64,000 bases of DNA from an uncultured Candidatus Saccharibacteria bacterium (lineage in GTDB: Bacteria; Patescibacteriota; Minisyncoccia; Phycocordibacterales; CSBR16-119): assembly GCA_964652835.1 (NCBI GenBank), contig CAZZCB010000001.1, positions 26,935 through 90,934 of the forward strand, given 5' to 3'. The position numbers and the translations under genes are program-made. Below are positions 6,157-53,968 of the stretch, piece after piece; the first letter of the stretch is position 1; every line of letters starts with the position of its first letter. Under the pieces are notes generated by a model that saw nothing but the letters and a program-made list of their open reading frames with translations, did not search any database and was not told the origin of the DNA.

Positions 6157-6184
6157 AGTATAGCATATAATAAAAACTTGTCAA
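6157..6184 (-). promoter_or_regulatory. sigma70-type promoter (TTGACA-16-TGcTATACT) for island gene 5600..6106
   Basis: Minus strand reads gcTTGACAagtttttattatatgcTATACT. Same architecture as 5 other promoters in the window. Confidence 0.6.
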
Positions 6185-6288
6185 GCACTTTTATTTATGC
6201 TATAGTTTGTCTACCAAAAACCTTTATTTTAAGCCATTTTTTGGTAATTAATAAAAAATTACTAGACACTAATAACTATAAACCACAT

Positions 6289-6885
6289 ATGTTAATACCA
6301 ACAGTAATAGAAAAGACACATAACGGAGAACGGGCTTACGACATATACTCTCGCCTACTAAAGGAGCGGATTATCTTCCTGGGAACAGGGGTTGAAGAAA
6401 ACTCATCAAGTAACATAATCGCTCAACTTCTTTTTCTAGAATCAGAAGATCCTAAAAAAGATATATATATGTACGTAAACTCTCCAGGCGGAAACGTAAA
6501 AGACGGACTTGCGATAATAGACACAATGAATCATATCAAACCAGATGTGGCGACAGTTTGTGTAGGTATGGCAGCTTCAATGGGTGCAGTAATACTTTCA
6601 GCTGGAGCAAAAGGTAAGAGATTTATACTTCCAAACGCGGAAGTTATGATCCATCAACCACTTGGCGGAGTTGAAGGACAAGCTTCTGATATCGCTATAA
6701 CGGCAGACAGAATAATAAAGACGAAAGCTAAATTAAATAAAATCCTTGCAGAAAACACAGGTCAAAAAGTTGAAAAGGTTGAAAAAGACGGAGACAGAGA
6801 CTACTGGATGGACGCAAAAGAAGCAGTAAAGTACGGAATCGTAGACAAGATAATGGAGAAACCTAAATCTGGAATTAAGAAATAA
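6289..6885 (+). CDS. clpP: ATP-dependent Clp protease proteolytic subunit
   Basis: [10 protein letters not shown]...[14 protein letters not shown]...MIHQPLGG catalytic Ser/His motifs. The ORF-track N-extension from 6091 is non-homologous and overlaps the divergent promoter, so the start is set at the ATG at 6289. Confidence 0.9.
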
Positions 6886-6892
6886 AATAAAA

Positions 6893-6921
6893 AGACCCCG
6901 CACTTCGTGCGGGGTCTTTTT
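6893..6921. terminator. bidirectional terminator between clpP and the convergent 529-aa gene
   Basis: agaccccgcacttcgtgcggggtct hairpin flanked by A-run and T-run. Confidence 0.7.
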
Positions 6922-6924
6922 ATT

Positions 6925-8514
6925 TTATAGTCTACCTAAATCTACTCCGTACAAGTTCATATCGTGTTTGTTTATAAAGATAAAATAATCTTGTTTATCA
7001 TTTACAACCGGACTTGTAACATCTATTTGGCCTTTTATCTTATTTTGATCGAGTAATATTTTTGCAGTATTCGTCGCAACATCTATTTTCCAAATCATAT
7101 CTGAGAATAGAGTCTCCCCTTTATACCAGTCGTCTGGATAAGTGGCTGTTGGAACAGAAGATGGGGCGCCACAATAAATAGTTTTACTATCTTTTGTCCA
7201 TATACATTTTTCAGGAAGAGTTGTTGGGGCGAAATCTGAGATCTGTCCTGTTGCGATGTTTAATAAAGAAGTTTTTAAAGTCGCGTTTTCATATGAACTG
7301 TATAGAGCCTTTTTTCCATCTGGACTTATATTTGTCGTTAGCCCGTTTACGTTTGAGATTATATTTTTCAGACTATTATTTTTAACATCTAAGATATATG
7401 AGTTTCCTGGATATCTGCCAGATGCGCGAGTGGTTAAAGAAATAGTATTTTCAGATATAGCTTGAGGGATCCATTCTGAGAATTTTGATGACCAAACTTT
7501 TTTAGAAGCCCCTGTTTTAAAATCATATATCACGCCGTCCACACCAGAGGATTGTTTTAACAAGTAAAATATTTTTTGTCCTGAAGATATAGGAGAAACA
7601 AAAGTTATATTATTAGTCAGAAGTTTTGTTTCAAGCGTTGCATATTTTGCAGAGTCCCCCAAAAGAAGATCTGGCTTTTTAATACTCGCGACAACATTTT
7701 CAACAATACCGTCTTTAAGATATCTCATGAGCAAGAAGCTTTTTGTATTATCAAAATAAGACTCGTATACTCTAGCAACCTGAGAACTAGTAACTCTAGC
7801 AAGTGGCTCATTTGGTTTTATCGCCTTGTCAAAAATATATCCGTTTGATCTATCTACAAAACGGACAAGCTCTACAGTTTCCTTCAGAGGAGCTTTCGCC
7901 ACCTTTGGCACAATACCCTGGAATTCGTTAAGCTTCTTGTACATCATCGGACCCACAACTCCGTCCGGAGTTAGTCCGCTTTTGTCCTGGAATTCGATAA
8001 CTGCATTTTTTAGAGTTGTGTCAAAAGCGTTGTCTATAGCTAAAGACGGCGAAGGGTCTTGTCTATTCAAAACAGTTTTTAAATCTACAACCTCTTTCCT
8101 GTCGTCTCCAAATTTAAGAGATGGATATCCTGTAAAATCATACCCTTCTACCAAGTTCGCAGAAACTTCTTCTGGAACTATTATCTCTCTTTCGATATAA
8201 GTAAAGGTGGTGCCAGATACAGGCTCTTCACTTATTTTTTGAACTATTGGAGAATCTTCATTTGAAACAAAATCAACCTGAACAGGAACGGCTCCATCCC
8301 CTTCACCTTCTTCAGAACTGCCATCTCCCCCACTAGAATTATTCCCATCGCCCAAAGAAGTATCTTCTGAATTTATTCCAAAAGGATTTTCAATATTCGT
8401 CTGTATTTCCAGCGCATCTTTTTTGTTTTTTGCGCGAACCAAAATAATACCTAAAATAACAAGGCCGATAGCCAGAACTGAAACGAGTAAGATTTTAAAA
8501 AGTTTTTGTGACAT
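6925..8514 (-). CDS. membrane-anchored protein with peptidoglycan-binding domain and TolB-like beta-propeller repeats
   Basis: N-terminal TM. PG_binding_1-like LTPDGVVGPMMYKKL. Repeated SPDGKK / WD-like segments. Last gene of the T4SS-like operon. Confidence 0.55.
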   Translation of the reverse strand: MSQKLFKILLVSVLAIGLVILGIILVRAKNKKDALEIQTNIENPFGINSEDTSLGDGNNSSGGDGSSEEGEGDGAVPVQVDFVSNEDSPIVQKISEEPVSGTTFTYIEREIIVPEEVSANLVEGYDFTGYPSLKFGDDRKEVVDLKTVLNRQDPSPSLAIDNAFDTTLKNAVIEFQDKSGLTPDGVVGPMMYKKLNEFQGIVPKVAKAPLKETVELVRFVDRSNGYIFDKAIKPNEPLARVTSSQVARVYESYFDNTKSFLLMRYLKDGIVENVVASIKKPDLLLGDSAKYATLETKLLTNNITFVSPISSGQKIFYLLKQSSGVDGVIYDFKTGASKKVWSSKFSEWIPQAISENTISLTTRASGRYPGNSYILDVKNNSLKNIISNVNGLTTNISPDGKKALYSSYENATLKTSLLNIATGQISDFAPTTLPEKCIWTKDSKTIYCGAPSSVPTATYPDDWYKGETLFSDMIWKIDVATNTAKILLDQNKIKGQIDVTSPVVNDKQDYFIFINKHDMNLYGVDLGRL

Positions 8515-8516
8515 AT

Positions 8517-10049
8517 TTAGTTAAATGTTATGTGCCAATGTTTAGCGGTAGTGTTTCCTGTTGAGCCACTTGGTTCTGCGTAAAAACTTCCAACTCCATC
8601 AATATTAATCGTCTGACCGCTAGGGAAATTAGCGCTTGGGGATGGCCCTCCTGGTAAACCATTTAAGTATGTATTTAAAGATTCTGTAGCCCTCATGTCT
8701 ATAATCTTTTTATTTGGACCATGTGTGGAGTGAAGCCAGGCCTCACTCCCTCCTGTTATGACCATTTCACAGTTACAACTATTTTTAAAGGATATTATCT
8801 GCCCGATTACAGACTCAGCGGTTGAATCAAAATAAACAGAAGTACAATTTGGCGTACCAGCTGTTGGTGTACAGTTAGAATTACCGGAAGATGAAACAGA
8901 TATACCTGCAGCAGATAACTGACCTCTTTGCTGAGAATCATCTGGCCATGGCATTCCCATAACGATAGGTTGACCATTTAACATTGCAGTAGGTGCGATA
9001 TTTGTACCTGGTGTAGCATTACCGTTGTCCCATTCTCTTGTTGGTCCATCTAATGTGACTGTTGGTATTTTAATATTTAAATCCTCTGCAAGCTCTGGGT
9101 TTATTGTGTTTAATATAACCCAAGCGCCCAATGCTAAAACAAGTCCTGTTATTGCATTTACTATGTAACTTTTTCCCTTTCCTTTTTCTCCAAAAGACTC
9201 AGATGTTAGATATGTTATACCTCCAACAACAATCATTATCAGCGCCAAAAGTCCTGCGACAACTATAAGTATCGTGAACAGAGATTCAAGCCATTGACCC
9301 ACGTCTGGGTCCCCTGTGAATCCTGGAAGTGGTGCCAGAGGGGTGGTTGAATACTCACCTGAAACAACACCACCAGTGTTTATAACACCAGTTGTTGTTA
9401 TGTCTATGGTTGTATTATCCGTGCTACAAATACCACCATACGGTAAAGGGTTTGGCGCCTGACCGGCGCCGACGGGACATCCAAGTTGCCAGTACGTTTG
9501 ACATGAATAGTCACATTCATACATTAGCCCACTACCATTTTGAGATAGGTTAAAAATTTCTGGTGACCCTGTTATGCTGTCGTTAAATATTTTAATTGCA
9601 ATTATACAGTCCTCTATTCCTGCCACCGCCTCACACCCCCCCAAAACTCCTCGTTCTCCAACCAGAAGAGGTATTGAAAAGTCACTTGTTGTAGACTGAA
9701 AATCAGTAGAACCATTTGGTGACGAAGTAGAGTCAGTAAGTGCTATTTTTATTTCTTGTATTGGGACGACCTCGATACCAAATGATAATGTTGTACTAAA
9801 TTGAATATTTTGCAAAAGGACTCTGAATATATTTCCGCCAGTAGTATTACAATCTATAGTTTTTACATCTAGATATACAAATGGCCTAGGATCATCCTCG
9901 TACTGATTTATGGTAAACCAACCTTGGGGTCTGATGGACGTCTGACCAGATACTATCTCACAGGCCTCTACTGAGTGGGCGCCGGAAAAAACAAAAAAAC
10001 CTGTAAGGAAAAGAAAGACAGTTAAAAGATTTTTAATAAAACTATTCAT
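8517..10049 (-). CDS. T4SS-associated surface protein: signal peptide, internal double-TM hairpin, C-terminal putative zinc peptidase (M15/VanY-like) domain
   Basis: TM hairpin LFTILIVVAGLLALIMIVVGGITYL-TSESFGEKGKGKSY-IVNAITGLVLALGAWVIL resembles a VirB2/TrbC pilin-like hairpin. C-terminal HSTHGPNKKIID ... AKHWHITF resembles the H-x(6-7)-D ... HxH zinc ligands of M15 peptidases. Confidence 0.4.
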   Translation of the reverse strand: MNSFIKNLLTVFLFLTGFFVFSGAHSVEACEIVSGQTSIRPQGWFTINQYEDDPRPFVYLDVKTIDCNTTGGNIFRVLLQNIQFSTTLSFGIEVVPIQEIKIALTDSTSSPNGSTDFQSTTSDFSIPLLVGERGVLGGCEAVAGIEDCIIAIKIFNDSITGSPEIFNLSQNGSGLMYECDYSCQTYWQLGCPVGAGQAPNPLPYGGICSTDNTTIDITTTGVINTGGVVSGEYSTTPLAPLPGFTGDPDVGQWLESLFTILIVVAGLLALIMIVVGGITYLTSESFGEKGKGKSYIVNAITGLVLALGAWVILNTINPELAEDLNIKIPTVTLDGPTREWDNGNATPGTNIAPTAMLNGQPIVMGMPWPDDSQQRGQLSAAGISVSSSGNSNCTPTAGTPNCTSVYFDSTAESVIGQIISFKNSCNCEMVITGGSEAWLHSTHGPNKKIIDMRATESLNTYLNGLPGGPSPSANFPSGQTINIDGVGSFYAEPSGSTGNTTAKHWHITFN

Positions 10050-11010
10050 TTTCTGTAATATTTAATCTCAAAGGTCTTGAGTTTTCTTGTAATAACTCTG
10101 TCTTGTTGTTTGTTCTGAAATTTAAATCTACTGAATTAACATTTTGAGCAACATCAAGGAAAATCATATTAGGAAAATCTGTAGCAAAAACCCTGCCCCC
10201 CACCTTCCACTCAGTTAGAAGTGAGGGGTCTTTAAGATTTTTTGTGAAAATAAAATATGGCTCAGCTATTATGTTTATTTTTCTTTTATTGAAATTTTGA
10301 TCTGTTTTTACGGCTTTGTTATATAAAGGTCCGTAGGCAGAGCTAAATTCATAAAAGTGAACTTCACTGCTACCCGGGGTGATAGTAACGCTCTTTTCTA
10401 AAGACCTAGAAAGCCCGGCAGCCGAAACCTGAACTGAGTTTTGTTTATCTAAAATACCAGGAGAATAAAGGAAGCTGTTTTTTCCGTAGCCTGATTGGCC
10501 GGCAAAATTAGATCCGTCTTTATGCCAAGAATATACGAAAGTTTCCGGACTAGGAACAAAACCCTTACTGTTTGTAATCTGAGGAATAGCCACAACCTTT
10601 ATTCTGGACTGTTTTATAGGGATTATCTTACCTTTATAAAAAGGTGGCTCATATCCACCAACAACCTCCCAGAGGACATCCATAGAAGATGGGTTTATTT
10701 TTATAGAAGCTTCGAGACTACCCCCATTTATCTTGGCTATGCTTTTTATAGTATTTCCATTTTCACCAACAGAGAAAGAAAAGTTTTTTATTCCCTTTCC
10801 TTTACTTTCTAGCTTTCCGTCTTTATACCAAGAAATTTCTGAGTTATTTAGATCAAGACCAAAAGAAGAAACAGAAACGGAAACCATCTCACCAGGAGAA
10901 GGATAGCTTGGAGAAGATTTAAGCTCTAGAGACTGAGCGCCTACAAAAAAGGGCAACGCAAAAAAAACAAAGGCTGAGAATATTATTTTTTTTGACAAAA
11001 TGCCTTTCAT
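10042..11010 (-). CDS. secreted protein, unknown function (T4SS-like operon)
   Basis: Signal peptide MKGILSKKIIFSAFVFFALPFFVGAQS. Confidence 0.45.
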   Translation of the reverse strand: MKGILSKKIIFSAFVFFALPFFVGAQSLELKSSPSYPSPGEMVSVSVSSFGLDLNNSEISWYKDGKLESKGKGIKNFSFSVGENGNTIKSIAKINGGSLEASIKINPSSMDVLWEVVGGYEPPFYKGKIIPIKQSRIKVVAIPQITNSKGFVPSPETFVYSWHKDGSNFAGQSGYGKNSFLYSPGILDKQNSVQVSAAGLSRSLEKSVTITPGSSEVHFYEFSSAYGPLYNKAVKTDQNFNKRKINIIAEPYFIFTKNLKDPSLLTEWKVGGRVFATDFPNMIFLDVAQNVNSVDLNFRTNNKTELLQENSRPLRLNITENE

Positions 11011-11016
11011 AATAGT

Positions 11017-11661
11017 TTAAAATTTTAGCTCTTCCTCAACTTCTTTTTCAATATTTGATATCTCCCCTTTTATAGCATCAACTTTATTTAACTGACTTTC
11101 TATTTTTTGTTTTGATTCTTCAAGTTCTTTTATGTTTTCTATATCTTTAGCAATATCTTCTTTTACTTTTTTTAGATTATCTAATTCTTCTTTTACTTCT
11201 GTTTTTTTAAACCCGAGCTTTTCTACTATTTTAGAAAGCATCGACTGAAGACTTAAGATTTTTTCATTTAAGGATTCATTTTTCGCTGGAGCAGAAGAGT
11301 GTCCGACAGTTTGGTTAAACTCTTTTTCTAAATCAGAAATATTTGTTTCAACTTTATTTGGTAAAGGTTTTATTGGGTCAGTAGCCGGAGCGACGCTTTC
11401 CAAGGCCTCCTCTTTTGCCGGAGTAGATTTTTTATCCATCTGCTCTTTTAGTAAACTTAAATCTTCTTTGCTTCCTTGCGGAGCAAATTCTAAGCCTATT
11501 TTTTTAAGATCTGCATCGTCGCCCGACACAGGAGCACTATCTATATCTATAAATTCTTCTGTTTTGCTATCTCCAGATGACAAATCGACACCCGCATTAT
11601 GTAAAGTATCTTTCTCGCCACCAGTTATTTTATTATCTGTTGTTTTATTATCTGTATCCAT
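11017..11661 (-). CDS. acidic coiled-coil protein (T4SS-like operon)
   Basis: ORF track; low-complexity acidic N-terminus and K/E-rich coiled-coil C-terminus. Confidence 0.45.
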   Translation of the reverse strand: MDTDNKTTDNKITGGEKDTLHNAGVDLSSGDSKTEEFIDIDSAPVSGDDADLKKIGLEFAPQGSKEDLSLLKEQMDKKSTPAKEEALESVAPATDPIKPLPNKVETNISDLEKEFNQTVGHSSAPAKNESLNEKILSLQSMLSKIVEKLGFKKTEVKEELDNLKKVKEDIAKDIENIKELEESKQKIESQLNKVDAIKGEISNIEKEVEEELKF

Positions 11662-11713
11662 TGGCTTTATTATACCAAGAAGATACGAAAAAAGTCTTTA
11701 AATGTTGTGAATT

Positions 11714-13789
11714 CTAGATTTGATCCTTAAACATCTTTTCCAGCTCTTCTATTTCGGCGTCAAGTTTATTGTTTTCGTCTTCCATTTTATCAGTTTCGGT
11801 CTTATTTTCTAGAACAATTCTTACTTTAGGCTTATTTTCCATAGCCGGCTGTTCTGCGGTCACGGTTTCATCTGGCTCTAAATCATCACTTTTTGACTCT
11901 AAAGGCAGATCTTCTTCATAGTTAACCTCGTAGGATTCGTCTTTTGCTGGATTTGGCTTTCCCCCACCTTCTTCTTCCATATATTCATCTTTTGCTTTTT
12001 TAATAGCTAAAATCTGCGACGGATCAGATGTGATAATCTGGTCTTCTGTATATGAAGCGATTATTTTAATAGCCACGTGTTTAAGCCCGGCAAAGAAAAT
12101 TCCCTCTCCGACTTCTGATTCTAGAAGCAAATATTTTTCCTCATCTGTCAGGTTGAAAACTTTTTGCAATGCATCAGCAGAACTTGTGGATTGTTTCAAA
12201 AGAATCTGCATCGACGAGTTCGTCACGATAGGCATACCATACGGTGAGTTTATAAAATCATTTACGTCTTGAGTTATTGTTGAAAGGCCAAGATAGTATT
12301 TTCTACCTCTTTTTGCGATTGAATAAAGGAAACTCGCCGTATCTTCAGATTTCATCATCCACCAAGCCTCATCGACAATAAGAAGTCTCTTCTTTAGATT
12401 TTTACGGACAGCGTTCCAGATAAAGTGTGTGATGATATACATCGCAACAGGTTTTAGGTCGTCCTCCATGTCTCTAACAGAAAAAACTATAAATTTTCTA
12501 TTTATATCTACGTTTGTTGGTTGGTTTAGGAAATTCTTCCAAGTACCCTGAGTATATTTTATAAGTCTAGTTACCACAGATTCGCTTCCCTCAAGTCCCG
12601 AAAGAACCATTTCAAAGTCAGACAAAAGCGGCGGTTCGATATTTGAGAAATCAGATTCTGCTGAAATATCTTTCATTGCATAAGTTTCTGTTATGGCTTT
12701 GTCTATTAGTGCATCTTCTTCCGGCGAAAGTCCGCCGAGCATGATTCTAAAAAGTCCTACGAGCTGGATGGTGTTTCCCCTCAAAATATCGTCTGGCGTT
12801 TCGTCACCTGTTGGCATTGGTAAATCAAAAGGGTTTATGTGGTGCTCTGAAGAAAGAGAAATATTAAAATATCGCCCGCCGATAGCTTCTGCAAGATACT
12901 CATATTCTCTTTCCGGGTCGATAACAATAACTTCTGCATCAAACATTAGTGTTCGCAAAATCTCAAGTTTTGTAGAATAAGATTTACCAGAACCAGACTT
13001 GGCGAAAGTTACAGAGTTGTAGTTCTCAAGAGAAAATCTATCGAAAATAATAAGTGACGAGTTGTGTCTATTTACCCCATACAAAATACCCTTGTCTGAA
13101 GAAAGGTCGAAAGAGACAAACGGAAAAAGACTAGAAAGTGGTTCTGAGTTTAGCTTTTGGTGAATCGCCAAAAAATCGTTCCCTGTTGGGATAACACTGT
13201 TGAAACCTACGTCTTGTTGGAAAAGGGCTGGTTTTATATACACAAGCTTTGATTCAAGCATTGATTTTATTTCACTTTCTATCTTTGAAAGTTCTTTTTC
13301 GCTGTCAGCGTATATAGTTATATAAAGTCCAACGTCAAACATTTTCTGTTGAGCTTGTTGTAGGCTATCGCGAAGGTTTTCAAGATCCTGATACGCAGTA
13401 TCTAAAACAGGGTCGCGCACAAGACCTTTTGATTCACGCACATTTATCTGACTTTGAACTTCAGCAACTTTCTTCTGGAACTTTTTTAAAATATCTTCTG
13501 TGTTTATGTTGTGAATGTGAATAGCAACATCGAATATTTTGTCTAGGTTGATTATCGGCGTAAACCAGTTATCTGAAAGATAACGGGGATACGAGATAAC
13601 GAAATAAGTTCTGGTTATTTTATCTCCCAGGTTTAGGTTTTTTGGAGAAACCTTTAGGGCTGACGGAGCCAAAATATCCTGAAGCTCAAGAGTTGCGGCT
13701 TCGTAAATCTCCTTCGGTAAAACCGGCATTATCTCACGCTTTTTTGATCCAGATTTATTTGATTTTAAAATATTATCTAAAAAACCCAT
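11714..13789 (-). CDS. VirB4/TraC/TrbE-family type IV secretion ATPase (central and C-terminal ATPase part)
   Basis: Walker A SGSGKSYST. VirB4 DEAW motif (LLIVDEAWWMM). CagE_TrbE_VirB region VISYPRYLSDNWFTPII. Confidence 0.85.
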   Translation of the reverse strand: MGFLDNILKSNKSGSKKREIMPVLPKEIYEAATLELQDILAPSALKVSPKNLNLGDKITRTYFVISYPRYLSDNWFTPIINLDKIFDVAIHIHNINTEDILKKFQKKVAEVQSQINVRESKGLVRDPVLDTAYQDLENLRDSLQQAQQKMFDVGLYITIYADSEKELSKIESEIKSMLESKLVYIKPALFQQDVGFNSVIPTGNDFLAIHQKLNSEPLSSLFPFVSFDLSSDKGILYGVNRHNSSLIIFDRFSLENYNSVTFAKSGSGKSYSTKLEILRTLMFDAEVIVIDPEREYEYLAEAIGGRYFNISLSSEHHINPFDLPMPTGDETPDDILRGNTIQLVGLFRIMLGGLSPEEDALIDKAITETYAMKDISAESDFSNIEPPLLSDFEMVLSGLEGSESVVTRLIKYTQGTWKNFLNQPTNVDINRKFIVFSVRDMEDDLKPVAMYIITHFIWNAVRKNLKKRLLIVDEAWWMMKSEDTASFLYSIAKRGRKYYLGLSTITQDVNDFINSPYGMPIVTNSSMQILLKQSTSSADALQKVFNLTDEEKYLLLESEVGEGIFFAGLKHVAIKIIASYTEDQIITSDPSQILAIKKAKDEYMEEEGGGKPNPAKDESYEVNYEEDLPLESKSDDLEPDETVTAEQPAMENKPKVRIVLENKTETDKMEDENNKLDAEIEELEKMFKDQI

Positions 13790-42812: not shown

Positions 42813-42821
42813 TTAAAACAA

Positions 42822-42848: not shown

Positions 42849-43133
42849 TGTTTTTATTGAAAAAGATCTACAAACCTCCAAATAATCCTTTTTCTTACAA
42901 AGTAAGAAAAGTAATAAAATCTTAAAGGATAGCCGCAGTAACTCCGCTTGATGCGGTAACCATTGCGTCCTTTTTGAAGTTATAGAGACAGAGCCTGATT
43001 ACTTAGAGGTTTCTAAACCCTTTTCAATGAGACAGATAATATATCACGGACAAAAATATTGTAAAGTACATTTATAAGGACGCACCGTGCATACGTTCCT
43101 TACAAAATAAAAAAAGACTAAAACGTCTTTGTT

Positions 43134-43163
43134 TTGAACAAAAAATCACAAAAGTGATATAAT
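43134..43163 (+). promoter_or_regulatory. candidate promoter (TTGAAC-18-TATAAT) for ruvB
   Basis: ttgaac...aaagtgatataatg about 55 nt upstream of the ruvB ATG. Confidence 0.35.
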
Positions 43164-43216
43164 GTTTTTAAATCTTTAATTTACTTACCTGAGTAGTTTA
43201 GCATATAAAAAATAAA

Positions 43217-44209
43217 ATGTCAAGTGATACAAATACAAATGAAGAAATAAAGAGCGACAGCTTTTTAGACAATACTTTAAGACCTCGCACTTGGGACGAG
43301 TATATTGGTCAGGAAAAAATTAAACAAAACCTAAAAATACTTATCCAAGCAGCAGAAGAAAGGGGTCATGTCCCAGAACATATTTTATTCCACGGACCAC
43401 CCGGACTTGGTAAAACAACTCTTGCACACCTGATCGCTCGTGAAGCAGGGAAACAAATGAAAATAACATCTGGGCCTGCGATAGAAAAAGTTGGGGACCT
43501 CGCGAGCGTTCTAACAAATCTTTCTCCTGGAGATATTTTATTCATCGACGAGATTCACCGACTAAACAAAATGGTTGAAGAAGTTCTCTACCCTGCGATG
43601 GAGTCAGGAGTGCTCGATATCATCATCGGTAAGGGTCCTTCTGCTAGAACTATCCAGCTCGACCTACCACCTTTCACGCTCATCGCAGCGACGACTCGTC
43701 CAGCGCTCATCTCTTCCCCACTTCGTTCACGTTTCTCAGGCGGAGTTCACAGACTTGAATTTTATACAGATAACGAAATGAAAGAGATTGTGAAACGAGC
43801 GAGTCTTCTTTTGGGAACAGAAGCGGACGAAGGAGCAGTGGAAGAAATAGCAAAGAGAGCGCGGTTCACACCAAGAACTTCTAACTACTTTTTAAAACGC
43901 GCTCGCGACTACGCTCAAATAAATAAAGAAAAGTTAACAAAAGAAAATGTCCGTAAAGCGCTAGAGCTTTTAGGTGTTGACGATATCGGACTTTTTGAAA
44001 CGGACAGAAATCTTTTAAGGACAATAATCGAAAAGTTCGGCGGCGGACCCGTAGGACTAAACACTCTCGCCGCAGCAACAAGTGAAGAAGAGGCAACAAT
44101 AGAAGAAGTTATCGAACCATATCTTTTAAGACTAGGACTTCTCGAAAGAACACCTCGCGGACGAACAGCGACAGAAAAAGCATATCAGCACCTGGGGATT
44201 AGGCAGTAG
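43217..44209 (+). CDS. ruvB: Holliday junction branch-migration helicase RuvB
   Basis: GPPGLGKTTLA Walker A. RuvB sensor motifs. Confidence 0.92.
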   Translation: MSSDTNTNEEIKSDSFLDNTLRPRTWDEYIGQEKIKQNLKILIQAAEERGHVPEHILFHGPPGLGKTTLAHLIAREAGKQMKITSGPAIEKVGDLASVLTNLSPGDILFIDEIHRLNKMVEEVLYPAMESGVLDIIIGKGPSARTIQLDLPPFTLIAATTRPALISSPLRSRFSGGVHRLEFYTDNEMKEIVKRASLLLGTEADEGAVEEIAKRARFTPRTSNYFLKRARDYAQINKEKLTKENVRKALELLGVDDIGLFETDRNLLRTIIEKFGGGPVGLNTLAAATSEEEATIEEVIEPYLLRLGLLERTPRGRTATEKAYQHLGIRQ

Positions 44210-45186: not shown

Positions 45187-45792
45187 TCACGATGCAATGA
45201 ATGCATCGACGGCCTTAAGCTTCGCAATTTCCACTTGCGAAACCGGCCCCACCAACTTCCCCGAAGTAAGTGTGCGCATTTTACCAAAACGACCAGTGTG
45301 AACGAACCTCTCTTCGTGACAGCGCAGAACATAACCGTCCCAATTGCCATCTTTAATGAGGTTCCAGTCGCGCTCAGTAATGAACACGCTCTCAATCGGA
45401 CCGTACAGCCACGCGATAGATATTTCAGGAAGTGGCGTTATCGGCCAAACTTTCCGAAAACCTGTCACGATAAATCCGTTCTCGGTCTTGAATCGGTTTC
45501 GGAAAGATCGAGCAGGAGCCATGTAGTCATCTTTACTATAGGGTATGGCTACCCACATAGATGCAACAGCGGCAACGTCCTCAAAATACTTACTACTTAA
45601 GACAACCATGTCGACCGGCACAGGGTGCTGGCAAGGAAGAAGTGCGACCCTCTCCTTAAACCATTCCTTGAGATCCATGGACCAATAACTGAGTGTCTCG
45701 GACAAGTTATCGGCGATTTCGAACTTTTTTTCGACATACATAAAAACTAAGACAATAATTGCAACGATGCAGATGATGGTCAAGGTTGTCAT
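45187..45792 (-). CDS. membrane-anchored hypothetical protein (moderately high GC); start set at MTTLTIICIV
   Basis: N-terminal TM anchor. ORF track gives 45187..45846 with an 18-codon N-extension. Confidence 0.45.
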   Translation of the reverse strand: MTTLTIICIVAIIVLVFMYVEKKFEIADNLSETLSYWSMDLKEWFKERVALLPCQHPVPVDMVVLSSKYFEDVAAVASMWVAIPYSKDDYMAPARSFRNRFKTENGFIVTGFRKVWPITPLPEISIAWLYGPIESVFITERDWNLIKDGNWDGYVLRCHEERFVHTGRFGKMRTLTSGKLVGPVSQVEIAKLKAVDAFIAS

Positions 45793-45868
45793 GTTTGCGG
45801 GGGTTGGTTGGTTTTTGTTTAAGGAACAGTGGCTAAATATAAACATATATTTAGCTATTAGTCAATAC

Positions 45869-45916
45869 TTCCACTCTTTGAAAACTCGAGCGAACTCAAG
45901 TCCTCAAAAGTGGAGC
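45869..45916. repeat. 48-bp palindromic intergenic element, copy 1 (CCACTCTTTGAAAA-N19-TCAAAAGTGGAG)
   Basis: Direct comparison with copies at 46632 and 47851. Confidence 0.8.
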
Positions 45917-45938: not shown

Positions 45939-46619
45939 TTATTGTTTTTTCAAATTTCTCAAATACCCTCCGTCTATTGGTATAACCATATTACTAATCA
46001 CGTTTTGATTCACTAACCAAAAAATAGATTCAGCCACTTCTTCCGGGTTTAAAATTCTGCTCCCTGGTGAATCTTTTAAAACCTGATTAAATTTTTTACC
46101 AAAACCTTGTCTTGAAAGACCTGTGTCAACAAGTCCTGGAGCAACGCAATTAATAAATACGTCTTTTATTTTCATTAATTCATTTTCAAGTTTTTCATGT
46201 ACATCTTTTTCAAAAGAATAGTCTTTATTATCAGGAAGAAAAGTATACAGAGATCCAACCGCGCAAACATGACTTACGTTATTTGTTTTCAGCAATTCTT
46301 TTATTATTTGAACCCCGCCCAATTTTATTTCTTTATATAGTTTTTTATATTCTTTTGTTTTATCTTGAGAAAAAATTCCAGCGCAATGTATTATTTTTGA
46401 AATATTATATTTTTCTAATTTTTTAACCAACTCTTCTCTTTCTTTGTTTTTAGAAATATCGCATTGTATAAATTCAATATTTCCAAACACAGAAGCAAGG
46501 TCTCCTTTGTTTTCATTTCTACCAACAACAATAACCTCATTATCTTTTGATAATATTTTTGCTGTTTGGAAACCTATACCAGACGTTCCTCCTAAAATTA
46601 GTATTTTATTATTTTTCAT
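45939..46619 (-). CDS. SDR-family short-chain dehydrogenase/reductase
   Basis: ILILGGTSGIGFQTA (TGxxxGxG) and downstream Y/K catalytic region. Low GC, unlike flanking genes. Confidence 0.8.
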   Translation of the reverse strand: MKNNKILILGGTSGIGFQTAKILSKDNEVIVVGRNENKGDLASVFGNIEFIQCDISKNKEREELVKKLEKYNISKIIHCAGIFSQDKTKEYKKLYKEIKLGGVQIIKELLKTNNVSHVCAVGSLYTFLPDNKDYSFEKDVHEKLENELMKIKDVFINCVAPGLVDTGLSRQGFGKKFNQVLKDSPGSRILNPEEVAESIFWLVNQNVISNMVIPIDGGYLRNLKKQ

Positions 46620-46723: not shown

Positions 46724-47776
46724 CTACGAATCGTAGTGCCAAGCAGCGTCGAACACGGGTATCAAGAAATGTTTGCCAGACATCTTGTGCATCCGCGCCA
46801 ATTTCACAGCAACCGCAAACCCAGCCCTTCCTGTGCGACCAAACTCCGACAACGCTTCGTGGTGAAAGTCGTCCCACTTCACAACCCACTCACTTTTATC
46901 TGCCGGCTTAAAGCCAACAGATTCAATGAAGAGTTGATCTACGTAGTCGCTTGTCACCAATCCAACACCGTCGAGTAGTGGTATTGCCACATCAAGTGCG
47001 GGCATGGAAAAGGTGGTGTGAGAAGGTGATGATCCGGGTAAGTCATGTCGCAAAAACATGTCTGGGTTGATTCCAAAAATCCTTTCGTACTTCCCAGGAG
47101 GATAGTATTTGCGGTGAGCATTGCCAGATGCCACAGATTCAAACCCGAACACTTTCGATTGGGGAAAGAGTGACTTGAACCCGGTTGCCATGGGAAGTGC
47201 CGTGGTGCCATTACCCAAAGGGCAAATGACCACATCCGGTCGAATACCGGCTTCGACGACTTCTTCGACGAAGGGACGGAACGCATTAGTCGCAGCGTTG
47301 TTAATCGAAATTCCTCTCCCGAATATGTCACCCATCGCGTGGTTGATATATTTAGTTTCGGGATGTTTAGCAAGAAAAGCCTTGATAAACTCTGGGAATC
47401 CGTTCACGTACGCTTCGGCTGGCGTGAGGATAAGCTCCCCGCCAGCTTCTTCGATCGCCCGCTCACGAGCCTTCTCACCACCAGCAGGCACTGCGATCTT
47501 GATATTGTAACCAAGAGCAGTGGCAACTGCGGCTGCGGCACGTCCGCCACTGCCCGAAGTGGTTTCCAGAAGCGTGTCACCTGGCTTGATGAGGCCGAGG
47601 CACTCTTTCAAGTAGATGAGCTTCAGGAACACTCGGGAATAGTGGCACTCACCGTACGGCAACTTGTAGTCAAGTTTGAAGTGGTAAGTGTTACCCTCAA
47701 ACTCAATGGTTTCGATTGGCGAATTGCGGACTTCAGACATCATGCGTGTGTAGAGGTTTTTGCGCTGAGTGTTCAT
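46724..47776 (-). CDS. cysteine-synthase-like (PLP fold-type II) protein lacking the Schiff-base lysine, paralog 1
   Basis: Aligns along its length to CysK (TSGSGGRAAAAVATALGY, GEKARERAIE, LGNGTT). The SVKxR lysine motif is replaced by ECHYSR. About 52% GC. Confidence 0.7.
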   Translation of the reverse strand: MNTQRKNLYTRMMSEVRNSPIETIEFEGNTYHFKLDYKLPYGECHYSRVFLKLIYLKECLGLIKPGDTLLETTSGSGGRAAAAVATALGYNIKIAVPAGGEKARERAIEEAGGELILTPAEAYVNGFPEFIKAFLAKHPETKYINHAMGDIFGRGISINNAATNAFRPFVEEVVEAGIRPDVVICPLGNGTTALPMATGFKSLFPQSKVFGFESVASGNAHRKYYPPGKYERIFGINPDMFLRHDLPGSSPSHTTFSMPALDVAIPLLDGVGLVTSDYVDQLFIESVGFKPADKSEWVVKWDDFHHEALSEFGRTGRAGFAVAVKLARMHKMSGKHFLIPVFDAAWHYDS

Positions 47777-47790
47777 GATGGTTTATGTTA

Positions 47791-47809
47791 TGTGTTAGGC
47801 CTAAACACA
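47791..47809 (-). promoter_or_regulatory. 19-nt palindrome TGTGTTTAGGCCTAACACA, 14 nt upstream of the paralog-1 ATG
   Basis: Identical element with identical spacing upstream of paralog 2. Confidence 0.6.
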
Positions 47810-47850
47810 CAACATAAATTAATTTATATTTTTAAAAGAACTAAATATAT

Positions 47851-47897
47851 CTCCACTCTTTGAAAATTCCACCGAGGTGAAATTCTCAAAAGTAGAG
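47851..47897. repeat. palindromic intergenic element, copy 3 (CCACTCTTTGAAAA-N19-TCAAAAGTAGAG)
   Basis: The G-to-A change in the right arm gives a G-U wobble only if the element is transcribed from the minus strand. Confidence 0.8.
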
Positions 47898-48002: not shown

Positions 48003-49103
48003 CTAGCTTTGTTTGGTTTTTTCCGTCTGCTCCCACCAGCTGTCGTAGCGGTTCGCGTGATCGTAGGCGACTATCAGGTAGTTTTGACCCTCGGTTTCCC
48101 GTGCCAAATTTTCTGCCACCTTATAGCCAGCCCAGGTCGTTCGACCGAAGGTCTTGAGCTCATTTGGGATGCCGGTGTCGAACACTATGGCATCTTTTGG
48201 GGGCTCTTGACCCGTGATCTCGGTGTACTCCCTGAGAGTGCTTGAATCCCAGACCAACTTCTCTGCTGCGAGAAGTGGCAAGGAAGCCTCCAGAGCGGGC
48301 ACATCGAAATGCACTCGGTAGCTCGTACCTGGCAACCTATGCCTTGAGAACTCTCCGCGTTGCGACAGGTTCATCCCGAACTCTTCTTCGAAGCGTCCAG
48401 GATAAAGTTTGTCGTACACGAAACCACTCTCAAAACTTTCGGCTCCAACGATCTTGACCGAAGGACACAACTCCTTGATCCTGCGACCATATCCGTTCTG
48501 GGTTGTCCCATTACCGGATATTGCCACAAAGACATCAGGGGTCACGTTCTCCATGTCGCGCAACGCTTCGTCTACCACGTTGGCACAGGCGGCCATCGCC
48601 TCTTCGTTCACCATGGGCACTTTCCCTTCCAGGACCATGCTGTGGTTAAAGAAGAAACAATCCCTATTTTTCGCAAGGAACTTCCTTGAGAAAACGGGTG
48701 CGCCGTCAACGTAAGCCAGAGAGTCAGTGAGGTGCAGTTGGTGTGAAGGAATCCACTCCAAGATTGCACGCTCACGAGCTTTTTCACCATCGGCAGGCAT
48801 CGCAACCTCGCACACATACCCGAGTTGGGCAGCGAGCGAAGCCATTGCGATGCCAGCGCTTCCACTGGTGAAATCGTAGACTCTTTGACCCGGCTTGATC
48901 AAACCCTTCTCTTCGAAGTGCTTGAACAAAGCCAAGTAGATACGGACATAGTGGTTGAAACCAGGAGCATTTTCACACTCGAGCTTCACAAACAACTTGT
49001 TCCCGTTGGGGAGCACGTTATTCATTTCCACTAATCGCGTGTTAGAGGTTTTCACCTCGAGGCGAGAGTAGAGTTGGGCGCGCTGAGTGTTCATGGGGTT
49101 CAT
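48003..49103 (-). CDS. cysteine-synthase-like protein lacking the Schiff-base lysine, paralog 2
   Basis: Same fold (TSGSAGIAMASLAAQLGY, GEKARERAILE, SGNGTT). SVKxR replaced by FNHYVR. Start set at ATG 49103 (MNPMNTQR). The ORF track starts at an upstream GTG (49136) inside the leader palindrome. Confidence 0.7.
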   Translation of the reverse strand: MNPMNTQRAQLYSRLEVKTSNTRLVEMNNVLPNGNKLFVKLECENAPGFNHYVRIYLALFKHFEEKGLIKPGQRVYDFTSGSAGIAMASLAAQLGYVCEVAMPADGEKARERAILEWIPSHQLHLTDSLAYVDGAPVFSRKFLAKNRDCFFFNHSMVLEGKVPMVNEEAMAACANVVDEALRDMENVTPDVFVAISGNGTTQNGYGRRIKELCPSVKIVGAESFESGFVYDKLYPGRFEEEFGMNLSQRGEFSRHRLPGTSYRVHFDVPALEASLPLLAAEKLVWDSSTLREYTEITGQEPPKDAIVFDTGIPNELKTFGRTTWAGYKVAENLARETEGQNYLIVAYDHANRYDSWWEQTEKTKQS

Positions 49104-49116
49104 GGGGTTAGGGTTA

Positions 49117-49135
49117 TGTGTTAGGCCTAAACACA
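49117..49135 (-). promoter_or_regulatory. 19-nt palindrome TGTGTTTAGGCCTAACACA, 14 nt upstream of the paralog-2 ATG
   Basis: See 47791..47809. Confidence 0.6.
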
Positions 49136-49188
49136 CAACCGAAACCTTTTCTGAAACTGAATCTTTTCGATGAACAACTTTCTGGACA

Positions 49189-49218
49189 TATCATAGCAGG
49201 TTTTGTCAATCTTGTCAA
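49189..49218 (-). promoter_or_regulatory. sigma70 promoter (tandem TTGACA TTGACA -18- TGcTATGAT) for the cysK-like pair
   Basis: Minus strand reads TTGACAagaTTGACAaaacctgcTATGAT. Confidence 0.55.
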
Positions 49219-49328: not shown

Positions 49329-50090
49329 ATGGAAGATAAATTAAAAAGGCTAGGACTTACAGATAATGAAATAAAGGTGTATTTGTGTGTTCTTGAAAAC
49401 ACTAAAATAACCCCAGCAATGATTGCTCGAAAAACAGGCGTAACCCGCCCTACCTCCTACGGAGTAGGTAAATCTCTGGTAGAAAAAGGCTTTATTTTAG
49501 CCGACGAGCTCAGTCCAACGCTGTATTTCGTCGCCCTGCCCCCAGAAAACATAATAAAGTCTGTAAAAAAAGAAAGGCTTGAAATAGAAGAAAAGATAAA
49601 AATAGCAGAAGAGCTGAGTGCGGAGCTTTTATCTGTGCCAAAATCTAAAAACTATTCTGTGCCAAAAGTCAGATTTATAGACGAACACAGCTTTAAAGAC
49701 TTTATGTATGAAAGAGCTCCCGTTTGGAACAGCTCCGGACTTGCCGGCGACGGCACATGGTGGGGTTTCCAAGATCATGGACTTATAGACTATATTCCAG
49801 ACTGGTTTAAATGGTATTTTGATTTTTCTGCAGGGAAAATTAAATCAAACCTCATAACAAACGCCGAAGAAAGTGTGATGATTGGCGACAAGCTGCACGA
49901 GAAATATGAAAGACGGGCTAAATATTGGGCTGGTGCGGATAAAATAAAAGTTACGTATTCTGTTTTAGGTGACTTTGTTTTTATTGCAAACACACAAAGT
50001 AAGCCACACTATGTGGTGGAAATCCACGACGCTGTGATAGCTGAAAATATGCGACAAATCTTTAAGGGCTTTTGGGAGATGTTGCCTTAA
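49329..50090 (+). CDS. TrmB-family HTH transcriptional regulator
   Basis: N-terminal LGLTDNEIKVYLCVLENTKITPAMIARKTGVTRPTSYGVGKSLVEKGFI winged-helix region typical of TrmB. Divergent from the cysK-like pair. Confidence 0.55.
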   Translation: MEDKLKRLGLTDNEIKVYLCVLENTKITPAMIARKTGVTRPTSYGVGKSLVEKGFILADELSPTLYFVALPPENIIKSVKKERLEIEEKIKIAEELSAELLSVPKSKNYSVPKVRFIDEHSFKDFMYERAPVWNSSGLAGDGTWWGFQDHGLIDYIPDWFKWYFDFSAGKIKSNLITNAEESVMIGDKLHEKYERRAKYWAGADKIKVTYSVLGDFVFIANTQSKPHYVVEIHDAVIAENMRQIFKGFWEMLP

Positions 50091-51463: not shown

Positions 51464-51464
51464 G

Positions 51465-52145: not shown

Positions 52146-52245
52146 ATGTCTTAAATAGTATCGGAAAGTCTTGACATTATCAAAATATATGCCTAAATAT
52201 AGATATTATTAAACTTTTAGTTTAAAAAATGATATACTTGCCTAC

Positions 52246-53070
52246 ATGATTCCGTTGCAAAACAACAACATTGAAGAAATTGCCTTTTTATTTTTTTTAA
52301 AGAAAGAGGGCACGGCATTTGATCTAAAAAATCATTTGGATGACTTGGGTAAAAATGTAACTATTCAAGGTGTATACAAATCACTAAATAAGCTCATAAA
52401 ACAAGGGGTTTTAATAAAAAATAAAAAGAAAATGGTTGTTAGCCAGGAATGGCTTCAAAATTTGATAAATAAACTTGGTGGTGAAGGACCAACCCCTAAA
52501 ATAAAAGATGGTGAGTCAACAACACACCAATTTAACTCTTTAAAAAAACTAGATATGTACTGGAAACATATAACTAAGTCTGTTGGATTGGAGTTTGGTG
52601 ATTTCCCCATTTTTTCTTATGAACCACATGAAATATGGATTCATCTCAAAGATAGAGAGGAAAGCCAGAAGGAGTTTTTTAAAAGCTTCGATAAGCATAA
52701 AAGGTTTGGTTTTTTTAGGATTGGTGGAACAGATTTTGGAGATAAGCAATATAAAAAAGATTTTGCGAGCAAATATGTAAACGTCGATATTGATGAGAAA
52801 AGAATATTAAATGATTATATTGTTGTTATTGGAGACTACATAGTGAAAACTAAACTCAAAAAAGAAACAGCTGTAAAAATTGATGATGTTTTTAAGAAGG
52901 AAGTTAATATAAAAGGTATCCAGGAAAACCTAAATAAGTTCTTAACAGATAAACAAAAAGTTAAACTAATCATAGAAAGAAACAAAAACAAGGCTAAGTT
53001 ACTTAGAAAGAAAATGTCTAGAGAGTTTTACATCCCCCAAGAGCTTATTAAAAAGTATGATTTGTTTTAG
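52246..53070 (+). CDS. hypothetical protein with N-terminal winged-helix-like region
   Basis: ORF track; PadR/wHTH-like first 70 aa; weak. Confidence 0.35.
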   Translation: MIPLQNNNIEEIAFLFFLKKEGTAFDLKNHLDDLGKNVTIQGVYKSLNKLIKQGVLIKNKKKMVVSQEWLQNLINKLGGEGPTPKIKDGESTTHQFNSLKKLDMYWKHITKSVGLEFGDFPIFSYEPHEIWIHLKDREESQKEFFKSFDKHKRFGFFRIGGTDFGDKQYKKDFASKYVNVDIDEKRILNDYIVVIGDYIVKTKLKKETAVKIDDVFKKEVNIKGIQENLNKFLTDKQKVKLIIERNKNKAKLLRKKMSREFYIPQELIKKYDLF

Positions 53071-53080
53071 AATATAGAAT

Positions 53081-53560
53081 ATGAAAATAATCGGTATAGA
53101 TCCAGGGTATGAGCGGGTTGGGATTGCGGTTTTGGAGAAAAACAAAACTGACCGCAAGGAAAATGTTCTGTACTCAAACTGTTTTAAGACGAATGCAAAG
53201 ATGTCGCTCGACGAGCGGATATTTTTGATTGGAAAAGAAATAGAAAAAGTTATAAAAGAATTCTCTCCAGAAGTGATGGCTATTGAAAAACTTTTTTTTG
53301 AAAACAATGCGAAGACTGCGATGGGAGTTTCTGAGGCGCGCGGGGCGATAGTTTTCGTCGCGCAAAACCTGGGACTAAAAGTTCTACAGTACACACCGCT
53401 TCAAATAAAAAGCGCTGTGACAGGATATGGAAAGGCAGATAAAAGTGCTGTACATATGATGGTTCATAAACTGGTTACTCTGCCAAAAGAGGTAAAACAA
53501 GACGATGAAATCGACGCAGTCGCTGTGGCTATCACAGGATTTGCGACGGAAAGATTTTAA
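53081..53560 (+). CDS. ruvC: Holliday junction resolvase RuvC
   Basis: IIGIDPGYERVGIAV ... DEIDAVAVAITG catalytic acidic residues. Confidence 0.85.
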   Translation: MKIIGIDPGYERVGIAVLEKNKTDRKENVLYSNCFKTNAKMSLDERIFLIGKEIEKVIKEFSPEVMAIEKLFFENNAKTAMGVSEARGAIVFVAQNLGLKVLQYTPLQIKSAVTGYGKADKSAVHMMVHKLVTLPKEVKQDDEIDAVAVAITGFATERF

Positions 53561-53647
53561 TTTCCCCAAAAGCTGTTTTTCCCTCTTGCCTTTAATAAGG
53601 CTTTCTGCTAAAAATAGCGTAATTATAATAATCAATTTTAAAAACAC

Positions 53648-53857
53648 ATGGGACACGACGATTTACTTGGAGAGGATTTGTTTGCAAGTGAGTTAGATGA
53701 TGATTTACTGATCGGGGCTGATCTACCAGAAGAACTGGATCCGCTAGACGAAGTTCTTCCTGCTGAGGAAGAGGCTCTGGGTCTCGATGATGAAGATTTG
53801 TTAGATGAAGATGATGAAGATTATTCTGGAGGATACAATCCAGACGAGTGGAATTAA
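53648..53857 (+). CDS. small hyper-acidic protein (69 aa, about 45% D/E)
   Basis: ORF track; followed by a GC hairpin at 53868-53897. Confidence 0.4.
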   Translation: MGHDDLLGEDLFASELDDDLLIGADLPEELDPLDEVLPAEEEALGLDDEDLLDEDDEDYSGGYNPDEWN

Positions 53858-53939
53858 AGATGAAATAAAGAGGGGCGCCCGAGGGGCGCGCCTCTTTATT
53901 TATATCTAATTCTCACAGTGAGATTTGTTGTTATGTAGA

Positions 53940-53968
53940 TTGACAAAAACACTTTTTAGTGCTATGGT
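53940..53968 (+). promoter_or_regulatory. sigma70 promoter (TTGACA-17-TGcTATGGT) for 54001..54678
   Basis: ttgacaaaaacactttttagtgctatggt. Confidence 0.6.

Follow-up and report, generated by a model that had tools for sequence, protein, structure and literature searches.

We analysed a stretch of 64,000 nucleotides (the window) from the genome of an uncultured Candidatus Saccharibacteria bacterium of the Candidate Phyla Radiation (CPR), and in particular six near-identical promoters in it. A preliminary description had linked these promoters to exported-protein genes of deviant base composition and had proposed a dedicated regulator, promoter capture or a mobile cassette behind them. We find that the sites are probably ordinary housekeeping promoters of the sigma70/sigmaA type in a near-consensus form, each selected towards the consensus of the RNA polymerase, and we put the probability of this reading at about 0.72.

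All six promoters are present where they had been placed, five of them on the minus strand, and site 5 occupies 49190-49218. They combine, as described, a perfect TTGACA -35 element with an extended -10 element at a distance within the range of 16-18 bp. A strict search for TTGACA-N13-15-TGnTAnnnT returns seven sites in the 64 kb, the six and one at 43195-43223, and a search for TTGACA-N14-TGCTA that allows one mismatch adds the clpP promoter. For the latter motif, with at most one mismatch, 7 matches are found, whereas dinucleotide-preserving shuffles have 1.32 +/- 1.02 and none of 100 reaches 7. Neither the site at 43195-43223 nor the clpP promoter had been described before. The -35 element matches at 6/6 positions at seven of the eight sites and at 5/6 at the clpP site; site 1 has a spacer of 16 bp and the other seven have one of 17 bp. 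The trinucleotide TGC precedes the -10 hexamer at all eight sites, and (T/A)ATG does so at most sites of the clade. The hexamers are TATAAT, TATATT, TATTAT, TATGAT, TATGGT, TATACT, TAAACT and TATAGT. At site 5, which has two -35 hexamers, only the upstream one gives a spacing of 17 bp to TGcTATGAT. In a generic consensus scan of 1-12000 and 33000-64000, only these sites match 11-12 of 12 positions with an upstream TG (site 6 matches 10/12); the region 12001-32999 was covered by the regular-expression scan and per-gene scoring only. The six sites and the clpP site are intergenic and correctly oriented, and the promoters of GC-rich genes lie 32-86 nt upstream of the start codons. For comparison, loci of related or other CPR genomes (L001-L020; the window genome is W) were used, and the promoters are kept at the orthologous loci in L008, L011, L017, L019 and L020.

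The identity of the motif follows from which positions are conserved and from which other genes carry it. In an alignment of 20 promoters of the clade with a 17-bp spacer, the information is confined to TTGACAAA, (T/A)ATGC, TAT.AT and a following ATA, and the information content of spacers and flanks is near zero. The -35 element, the TRTG "-16" or extended -10 element and the -10 element are the contacts of the primary sigma factor known for E. coli sigma70 and Bacillus sigmaA. The conserved bases just outside the hexamers are AA after the -35 element, C after the TG (8/8 sites in the window) and ATA after the -10 element. In the relatives, TGA is as frequent as TGC. The full architecture is also found upstream of rpsO in L001, L002, L003, L017 and L019, where the downstream gene matches Pfam Ribosomal_S15, and upstream of nusA in the more distant CPR genomes L013 and L015. 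Near-variants precede clpP (with a 5/6 -35 element) and the tRNA unit downstream of PNPase (without TG). The exact 20 specified bases, TTGACAAA-N11-ATGCTATNATATA, occur in at least 120 unrelated public metagenome contigs from rumen, gut, soil, marine and sludge samples, and most of these, among the matches listed, have GGAGG-type leaders behind the motif. Because housekeeping units and many unrelated metagenome contigs carry it, we regard the motif as the universal strong-promoter consensus.

The preliminary description had named a general strong-promoter consensus as the finding that would speak against its proposals. This essentially matches the data, except that most genes lack the motif in their upstream region, since the majority of the core genes appear to rely on a -10 element only. 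It had further stated that housekeeping genes lack such perfect matches. Good matches are found at clpP, tRNA-Val and ruvB, and a full promoter precedes only one of 45 core genes.

Most core genes form part of long co-directional arrays, in which the intergenic gaps are tiny. Upstream of them, the best element is as a rule a TGgTAtAAT that ends 6-12 nt before the ATG and has no -35 element. For the 45 core genes, 12 of the -10-like hexamers fall in the 5-12 nt bin, compared with 4-7 in the other 8-nt bins, and such a hexamer is found near the start of 22/45 core genes against 1/7 island genes. When the upstream regions are read directly, no Shine-Dalgarno sequence is visible for essentially any gene in the window. 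In 7 genomes the element gcgTGgTAAAAT (TGgTAAAAT) is conserved at a distance of 7-8 nt from the ATG of the 315-aa gene that follows the PNPase slot. Genes with leaderless mRNAs, an architecture frequent in Actinobacteria and Deinococcus and covered by the models of GeneMarkS-2 (PMC6028130), have such a -10 element shortly ahead of the start codon, and the mRNAs of the core genes are probably leaderless. Each full-consensus promoter with a downstream gene, on the other hand, has a leader, of 32-86 nt in the GC-rich genes, 47 nt in the DUF11 gene and 83 nt in clpP; the leaders of rpsO in the relatives are 83-127 nt long. The promoter contrast therefore follows the division between stand-alone units with a leader and presumably leaderless operon genes.

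According to the model that we propose, most core genes would be transcribed from an extended -10 element (TGnTAnAAT) near the ATG into leaderless mRNA, with neither a -35 element nor a Shine-Dalgarno sequence. Stand-alone leadered units would use a full -35/-10 promoter, either exact, within one position of it, or without the TG. In the clade and in distant CPR genomes these units would include rpsO, nusA, the tRNA unit, clpP and the DUF11 surface-protein gene, and also a set of genes with GC-rich codon usage, whose products are small, restricted to the lineage and mostly exported or located in the membrane. The likeness of the sites would then result from the separate selection of each of them towards the same polymerase consensus for high expression.

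The link to compositionally deviant genes that had been proposed is real. In this genome of about 38% GC, seven genes of the window stand apart with a GC content at third codon positions (GC3) of 0.51-0.80, against 0.18-0.39 in all other genes of the window. Five of the seven have a full promoter, compared with 1/45 core genes (Fisher p = 4.7e-5), and the two without one are the 201-aa gene (TTGACT/18/TATATT) and the downstream paralogue of the PALP gene. The count of five promoters in GC-rich islands is likewise right, and the site 3 gene is a low-GC gene, as the count implied. The label "exported-protein genes" fits less well: the 168-, 232- and 638-aa proteins have signal peptides and the 225- and 201-aa proteins N-terminal anchors, but the other two genes of the class, including the one behind site 5, encode cytoplasmic enzymes dependent on pyridoxal phosphate (PLP). 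In the relatives, full promoters other than those of rpsO precede small open reading frames (ORFs) with a GC3 of 0.51-0.80 and CA-rich leaders.

The codon usage of these genes is different from that of the core. AGA makes up 4% of the arginine codons against 56% in core genes, ATA 13% of the isoleucine codons against 42%, and the relative synonymous codon usage (RSCU) correlates negatively with that of the core (r = -0.32). The compositional shift starts at the transcribed region, and the promoters are AT-rich like the host. The composition also changes inside a co-directional cluster: the SDR gene at 45939-46619(-) has a GC of 0.29 and a GC3 of 0.18 between GC-rich genes on the same strand (GC3 0.53-0.62), therefore the composition switches gene by gene. 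The GC-rich islands are protein-coding. Known structured RNAs were considered for them and rejected, given the periodicity GC3 > GC1 > GC2 and the conserved protein alignments; at gathering thresholds, Rfam matched nothing in the whole window but tRNA-Val. In Pfam and NCBIfam, the only matches of the island proteins were PALP or cysteine-synthase-like (both enzymes), DUF11 (the surface protein of low GC) and a faint one to lysozyme, and BLAST among the island proteins found no common domains.

The leaders of the GC-rich genes are 32-86 nt long and consist of 37% A, 34% C, 10% G and 20% T, while C and G are both at 14% upstream of core genes; examples are ...aaaccaaccaacc... and ...ccccatcaaccATG. 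They had been described as C-rich and without a Shine-Dalgarno sequence. Both are true, but the latter holds for essentially every gene of the window, and what sets these leaders apart is their length and their richness in C and A. The excess of C over G argues for some selection at the RNA level, at least in the leader. In our model each GC-rich gene would be an autonomous module of promoter, C/A-rich and G-poor leader, ORF and intrinsic terminator, and the units are probably monocistronic and highly expressed from a strong promoter.

The most serious alternative, although we think it rather unlikely, is that the GC-rich units are mobile modules that carry their own strong promoter between slots and related lineages, in the manner of phage morons. 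Morons are extra genes which lie between conserved phage genes, deviate in base composition and are served by a promoter and a terminator of their own. The units in the window resemble them in each of these respects, with a promoter and an intrinsic terminator recognised by motif only (the terminators of the 168-, 232- and 225-aa units in Table 1) and a deviant GC3. The slot next to PNPase gives the alternative its best support. A GC-rich module is present there in W, L003, L005, L017, L019 and L020 and absent in L001, L002, L004 and L007. W, L017 and L019 have the 232-aa gene with an upstream tRNA unit and L020 has it without the tRNA; L003 and L005 have a GC-rich gene of a 137-aa family, L001 and L002 only tRNA genes, which differ between the two, and L004 and L007 nothing. 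The 232-aa protein and the 136-aa protein of L005 are alike only in the signal peptide according to BLAST, and their promoters and leaders can be aligned, so that two unrelated cargos stand behind a similar promoter, leader and signal peptide. The terminators on both sides of the module in the window are alike, both of the form GAAGGCCCG...GGGCCTTTTTC. The 232-aa gene of the window is also an outlier, with 60-63% identity to the others, which are 68-76% identical mutually, unlike the flanking genes, which group W with L020. Finally, the 168-aa gene is a mosaic, hypervariable gene for an exported protein. Its middle part (5784-5999) has 43-48% DNA identity among genomes whose clpP is 85-95% identical (W, L008, L011), while the part for the signal peptide is 93-100% identical between W and L011.

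Several observations speak against mobile modules. No integrase, transposase or target-site repeats were seen beside the modules in the window, where the Pfam and NCBIfam scans covered 20 of about 58 ORFs, and the flanks are housekeeping genes and not phage or prophage genes. Scans of viral contigs for the 232-, 168- and 225-aa families found no relatives. The promoters of non-orthologous modules are alike at consensus positions only. The modules are conserved in place in several relatives, the 168- and 232-aa modules being present in every relative that has their family, and the promoter of site 1 is physically interlocked with that of clpP. The adjacency to tRNA-Val and the similar flanking terminators are features of one island only, and the other islands lack them. 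Homologous recombination through the conserved flanks accounts for the variation in the slot equally well. Modules have been gained, lost or replaced on evolutionary timescales, and to this extent the earlier proposals of capture or a mobile cassette agree with the presence, absence and cargo replacement in the PNPase slot; they disagree with the sharing of functional positions only, the lack of integrases or repeats in what was seen and the conservation in place.

The tRNA genes of the slot vary as well. An orthologous TTGACA/16/TAATAT promoter downstream of PNPase in W, L001, L002, L017 and L019 precedes differing tRNA genes (window 34702-34890(-), L001 12215-12382, L002 12202-12380, L017 4672-4864, L019 4663-4737). 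The sets are Val(CAC); one unassigned tRNA and Glu(TTC); Thr(CGT) and Lys(TTT); and Ile(GAT) with an "Ile(TAT)"-like gene of 96 nt. In L020 the slot contains no tRNA gene. The tRNA genes thus appear to have been swapped within one slot.

A promoter copied from place to place would be another form of mobility. Putative mobile promoters are near-identical promoter sequences upstream of non-homologous genes. The sites described here are not copies of one mobile promoter because their similarity is limited to functional positions; across non-homologous genes (20 sites) there is no identity beyond the contacts of the polymerase, and we reject the copied-promoter reading.

Recent transfer from a GC-rich donor, with DNA that has not been ameliorated behind a captured local, native or evolved strong promoter, is improbable. 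It would fit the high GC3 and the deviant codon usage of the class, the shift at the transcribed region behind an AT-rich promoter, and the tRNA gene that adjoins one module. However, the genes have orthologues of the same composition in the same place. The 168-aa orthologues between clpP and tig in L008 and L011 have a GC3 of 0.79-0.80 in genomes of 34-38% GC and share the interlocked divergent promoter pair with the window. The 232-aa orthologues in the PNPase slot of L017, L019 and L020 have a GC3 of 0.61-0.69, compared with 0.21-0.33 in the neighbouring genes, and their promoter and leader are conserved. Among these four genomes, 49/58 four-fold degenerate sites of the 232-aa gene (about 84%) are variable, against 77-84% in the flanking genes, at a GC content of these sites of 0.59 against 0.25-0.28 in the flanking genes. 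Since the high GC survives at saturated synonymous sites, the GC-rich composition is maintained and is not a remnant. The PNPase protein (34958-37084) matches genomes labelled Candidatus Paceibacterota, although some of the records bear the name Saccharibacteria; it is 83-92% identical to that of L001, L002, L003 and L005 and 74% to that of L007. Position and product length suggest a putative orthologue of the 638-aa gene in L020 (fragment GC 0.57).

The distribution of the families points in the same direction. The 168-aa family has 9 and the 232-aa family 8 clusters among 5.8 billion, and the 225-aa family has 7 representatives among 1.84 billion; no homologues outside this CPR group were found among these clusters and representatives. 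The pairing of PALP with a divergent TrmB gene is retained across CPR lineages; the TrmB-family regulator gene of the window (49329-50090), which is divergent from site 5, has a GC3 of 0.37, against 0.62 for PALP. A donor search by codon usage against CPR genomes of higher GC gave weak correlations only (r = 0.25-0.33), and no donor was identifiable. Parsimony polarisation of the changes at four-fold sites was not used as evidence, as the sites are too few and the method has a known bias from common to rare. For the 168- and 232-aa genes recent transfer is largely refuted, and "compositionally foreign", in the sense of a recent acquisition, is not an apt description of them. The GC-rich genes are more probably long-term residents that evolve fast, are conserved in place and bear signs of allelic exchange.

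Even less probable is a dedicated regulon, in which an alternative sigma factor or an activator would read gcTTGACAAA ... TATGCTAT.ATATA and co-regulate the exported-protein genes. The conserved bases do extend slightly beyond the classical hexamers, and the genes share export as a functional theme and a type of leader. However, every conserved position falls on known contacts of sigma70 or sigmaA, TGC is not preferred over TGA in the relatives, and TrmB, the one regulator in the neighbourhood, belongs specifically to the PALP locus. A dedicated sigma factor is not needed, and the proposal of such a factor or of an activator is not supported by a motif that also serves rpsO and nusA, with near-variants at clpP and the tRNA unit, and that recurs in many unrelated organisms.

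That the sites are chance matches in AT-rich intergenic DNA can be dismissed, for although loose promoter-like matches are near the shuffled expectation (43 vs 38.9; 36 vs 31.4), the strict motif is found 7 times against 1.3 expected, always intergenic, in the correct orientation and 32-86 nt before a start codon, and is conserved at orthologous loci.

Some points weigh against reading the sites as ordinary strong promoters of stand-alone units. Promoter activity, start sites and strength are read from sequence only, and the enrichment by position behind the leaderless interpretation of the core genes is modest and concerns AT-rich DNA. The proportions are drawn from about 64 kb of the genome and about 120 kb of close relatives. 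The reading gives no reason for the presence of the best promoters on precisely the GC-rich genes, or for the lasting GC-richness of these genes. The variable PNPase slot and the incongruent similarities mean that at least some modules have been gained, lost or replaced, so that a cassette-like component may be involved.

A tentative extension of the housekeeping-promoter reading, which we consider less likely than its opposite, is that two codon "dialects" have been kept side by side for a long time by an unrecognised force, the orphan, fast-evolving and mostly exported class with a GC3 of 0.5-0.8 within a genome with a GC3 of about 0.28, and that the promoters mark a secretome for interaction with the host. 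Candidate forces are GC-biased gene conversion (gBGC) where allelic exchange is most frequent, mRNA-level selection (for stability, or for initiation independent of a Shine-Dalgarno sequence in a mostly leaderless cell), and repeated re-import from an unsampled GC-rich population.

One protein of the class may give a hint of its function. From 8 sequences of the 232-aa family, AlphaFold predicts an all-beta barrel, with 12 strands according to DSSP; the best model has a pLDDT of 80 and the other four 36-64. The best 50 matches from Foldseek against the PDB are outer-membrane-type beta-barrels, among them porins (OmpF), Omp33 (TM 0.48), OMPLA (TM 0.50) and OmpG, with three artificial metalloproteins in the list that were left unchecked. 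A signal peptide and a C-terminal Phe are present. For Patescibacteria the absence of an outer membrane is presumed (PMC12102498). Should the prediction hold, a beta-barrel is unexpected in such a presumed single-membrane bacterium and hints at an action on the envelope of a diderm host.

Table 1. Promoters, genes and terminators discussed in the text. Promoters are given as -35 element/spacer length in bp/-10 element; positions are those of the window.
Feature	Position	Strand	Remarks
Site 1 promoter	6157-6184	-	TTGACA/16/TGcTATACT; serves the GC-rich 168-aa exported-protein gene; kept in orthologous L008 and L011 loci
clpP promoter	6178-6206	+	TTGTCA/17/TGcTATAGT; divergent from site 1; arrangement kept in L008 and L011
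Site 2 promoter	34655-34683	-	TTGACA/17/TGcTATTAT; 60-nt CA-rich leader 34595-34654; kept in L017, L019 and L020
Site 3 promoter	38806-38834	-	TTGACA/17/TGcTATAAT, 12/12 match plus TG; orthologous promoter in L020
Site 4 promoter	40985-41013	-	TTGACA/17/TGcTATATT; followed by a 71-nt CA-rich leader
Site 5 promoter	49190-49218	-	Tandem TTGACA hexamers TTGACAagaTTGACA; -10 element TGcTATGAT
Site 6 promoter	53940-53968	+	TTGACA/17/TGcTATGGT; followed by a 32-nt CA-rich leader
Extra full-consensus promoter	43195-43223	-	TTGACA/17/TGcTAAACT; no downstream ORF; faces the ruvB promoter
ruvB promoter	43134-43163	+	TTGAAC/18/TGaTATAAT
tRNA-Val(CAC) unit promoter	34863-34890	-	TTGACA/16/TAATAT; tRNA 34735-34808, terminator 34702-34734
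201-aa gene promoter	45836-45865	-	TTGACT/18/TATATT, weaker; CA-rich leader
168-aa gene	5600-6106	-	GC 0.61, GC3 0.80; signal peptide; 50-nt CA-rich leader 6107-6156
168-aa unit terminator, intrinsic	5469-5498	-	Conserved 3' hairpins 5499-5599 before the terminator
232-aa gene	33896-34594	-	GC3 0.59; signal peptide; own terminator 33854-33879
DUF11 surface-protein gene	37286-38758	-	Low-GC; signal peptide; site 3 promoter, 47-nt leader
638-aa gene	38997-40913	-	GC 0.54; Gly/Ser/Pro-rich product; signal peptide; hairpin after the gene read from sequence
201-aa gene	45187-45792	-	GC3 0.53; membrane-anchored product (N-terminal anchor)
Downstream PALP paralogue	46724-47776	-	GC3 0.56; cytoplasmic product
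PLP-dependent enzyme gene, cysteine-synthase-like	48003-49103	-	GC3 0.62; behind site 5; cytoplasmic
225-aa gene	54001-54678	+	GC3 0.51; N-terminal anchor; faint lysozyme-like match; terminator 54656-54684

A few further features of the promoters were observed. Site 1 and the clpP promoter stand back to back, and their overlapping -35 elements form the palindrome cTTGTCAAg. Some -10 regions are near-palindromic (TATAATATA; 40980-40990, 34655-34662), with extended -10-like elements that can also be read on the opposite strand. One such reading, in the region of site 4, is TGgTATAAT at 40978-40986(+), 107 nt upstream of pilB. These elements may reflect bidirectional promoter activity. The extra promoter at 43195-43223(-) could give rise to an RNA of about 80 nt, with a T-rich hairpin near 43105-43125 as its end. 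Another unit, with TTTACA/16/TGaTATATT at 43038-43065, runs to a bidirectional terminator at 42815-42854 (region 42813-43223, minus strand). A sensitive Rfam scan of 42700-43300 returned only sub-threshold matches driven by terminators. Just upstream of site 6, an uncalled 69-aa ORF at 53649-53858(+) encodes an extremely acidic peptide (MGHDDLLGEDLFASELDDD...) and has its own -10 element and a terminator at 53875-53896.

Behind the stop codon of the 168-aa gene, the 3' untranslated region (window 5462-5599(-), L008 6556-6712, L011 6502-6640) begins directly with a long conserved hairpin, AGATCATGTGCC...GGCACGCATGTGATC, and has a second stem ahead of the terminator; a few compensatory changes occur among the three sequences. 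The two PALP paralogues have the same duplicated leader, ttgtgtgtttaggcctaacacataac... (47780-47830 and 49104-49150, minus strand). A 15-nt repeat, TTTTCAAAGAGTGGA, lies ahead of the second PALP gene and of the 201-aa gene (47850-47875 and 45872-45900, minus strand) and may be an operator. In the other CPR genomes L012 and L015, PALP has a conserved long leader, gttcattgatatttcatttcgg...ccgtcgtttctgtg.atcggccgatcacagaaa, which may be a cis-regulatory RNA.

The Pfam matches in the window include NusA, trigger factor, ClpP, a VirB4/TraG-like ATPase, PilB/GspE, RuvB, RuvC, TyrRS, a TrmB-family regulator and an SDR. A co-directional array of 22 kb at 6925-29330(-) contains genes for peptidoglycan-binding, type IV secretion system (T4SS) pilin-like, VirB4/TraG-like ATPase and 1700-aa proteins. 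It matches the chromosomal monoderm-type T4SS cluster known in Patescibacteria (PMC12102498).

The promoters themselves are textbook examples, and the finding of six such sites is, as first stated, ordinary; it is useful as a pointer. For an uncultivated CPR lineage without transcript maps, the sequence itself separates two expression architectures. The set of full promoters flags a few probably highly expressed, lineage-specific exported proteins, which are candidates for interaction with the host. The stable GC-rich codon usage is hard to attribute to recent transfer and offers a tractable test of gBGC against mRNA-level selection in bacteria. A literature search on promoter or transcription start site maps in CPR, or on GC-rich gene classes in CPR, found nothing directly relevant.

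Four known systems can be compared with the units described here. They are like phage morons in being autonomous promoter-gene-terminator units of deviant composition between conserved genes, present or absent at one slot. They differ in that they are chromosomal in a CPR bacterium, with no phage genes nearby and no relatives found on viral contigs, and in that they are old and conserved in place, with a stably maintained composition. With putative mobile promoters they share similar promoters before unrelated genes, but here the identity is restricted to the polymerase-contact positions, spacers and flanks differ and there is no copied sequence. The leaderless architecture of Actinobacteria and Deinococcus (PMC6028130) has its counterpart in the core genes, with TGnTAnAAT 6-12 nt before the ATG and no Shine-Dalgarno sequence; in contrast to those systems, the likeness concerns the core genes only and not the six sites, and it is predicted here from the DNA sequence. 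The closest match is the canonical extended -10 promoter of sigma70 and sigmaA, which has the same TTGACA, the same spacing of 17 (16) bp, TRTG (with TG at -15/-14) and TATNAT, likewise between genes and 32-86 nt ahead of a start codon, in a motif widespread in metagenomes. The motif itself is identical to this promoter, and only its distribution within the genome, on a few stand-alone units with a leader, is particular.

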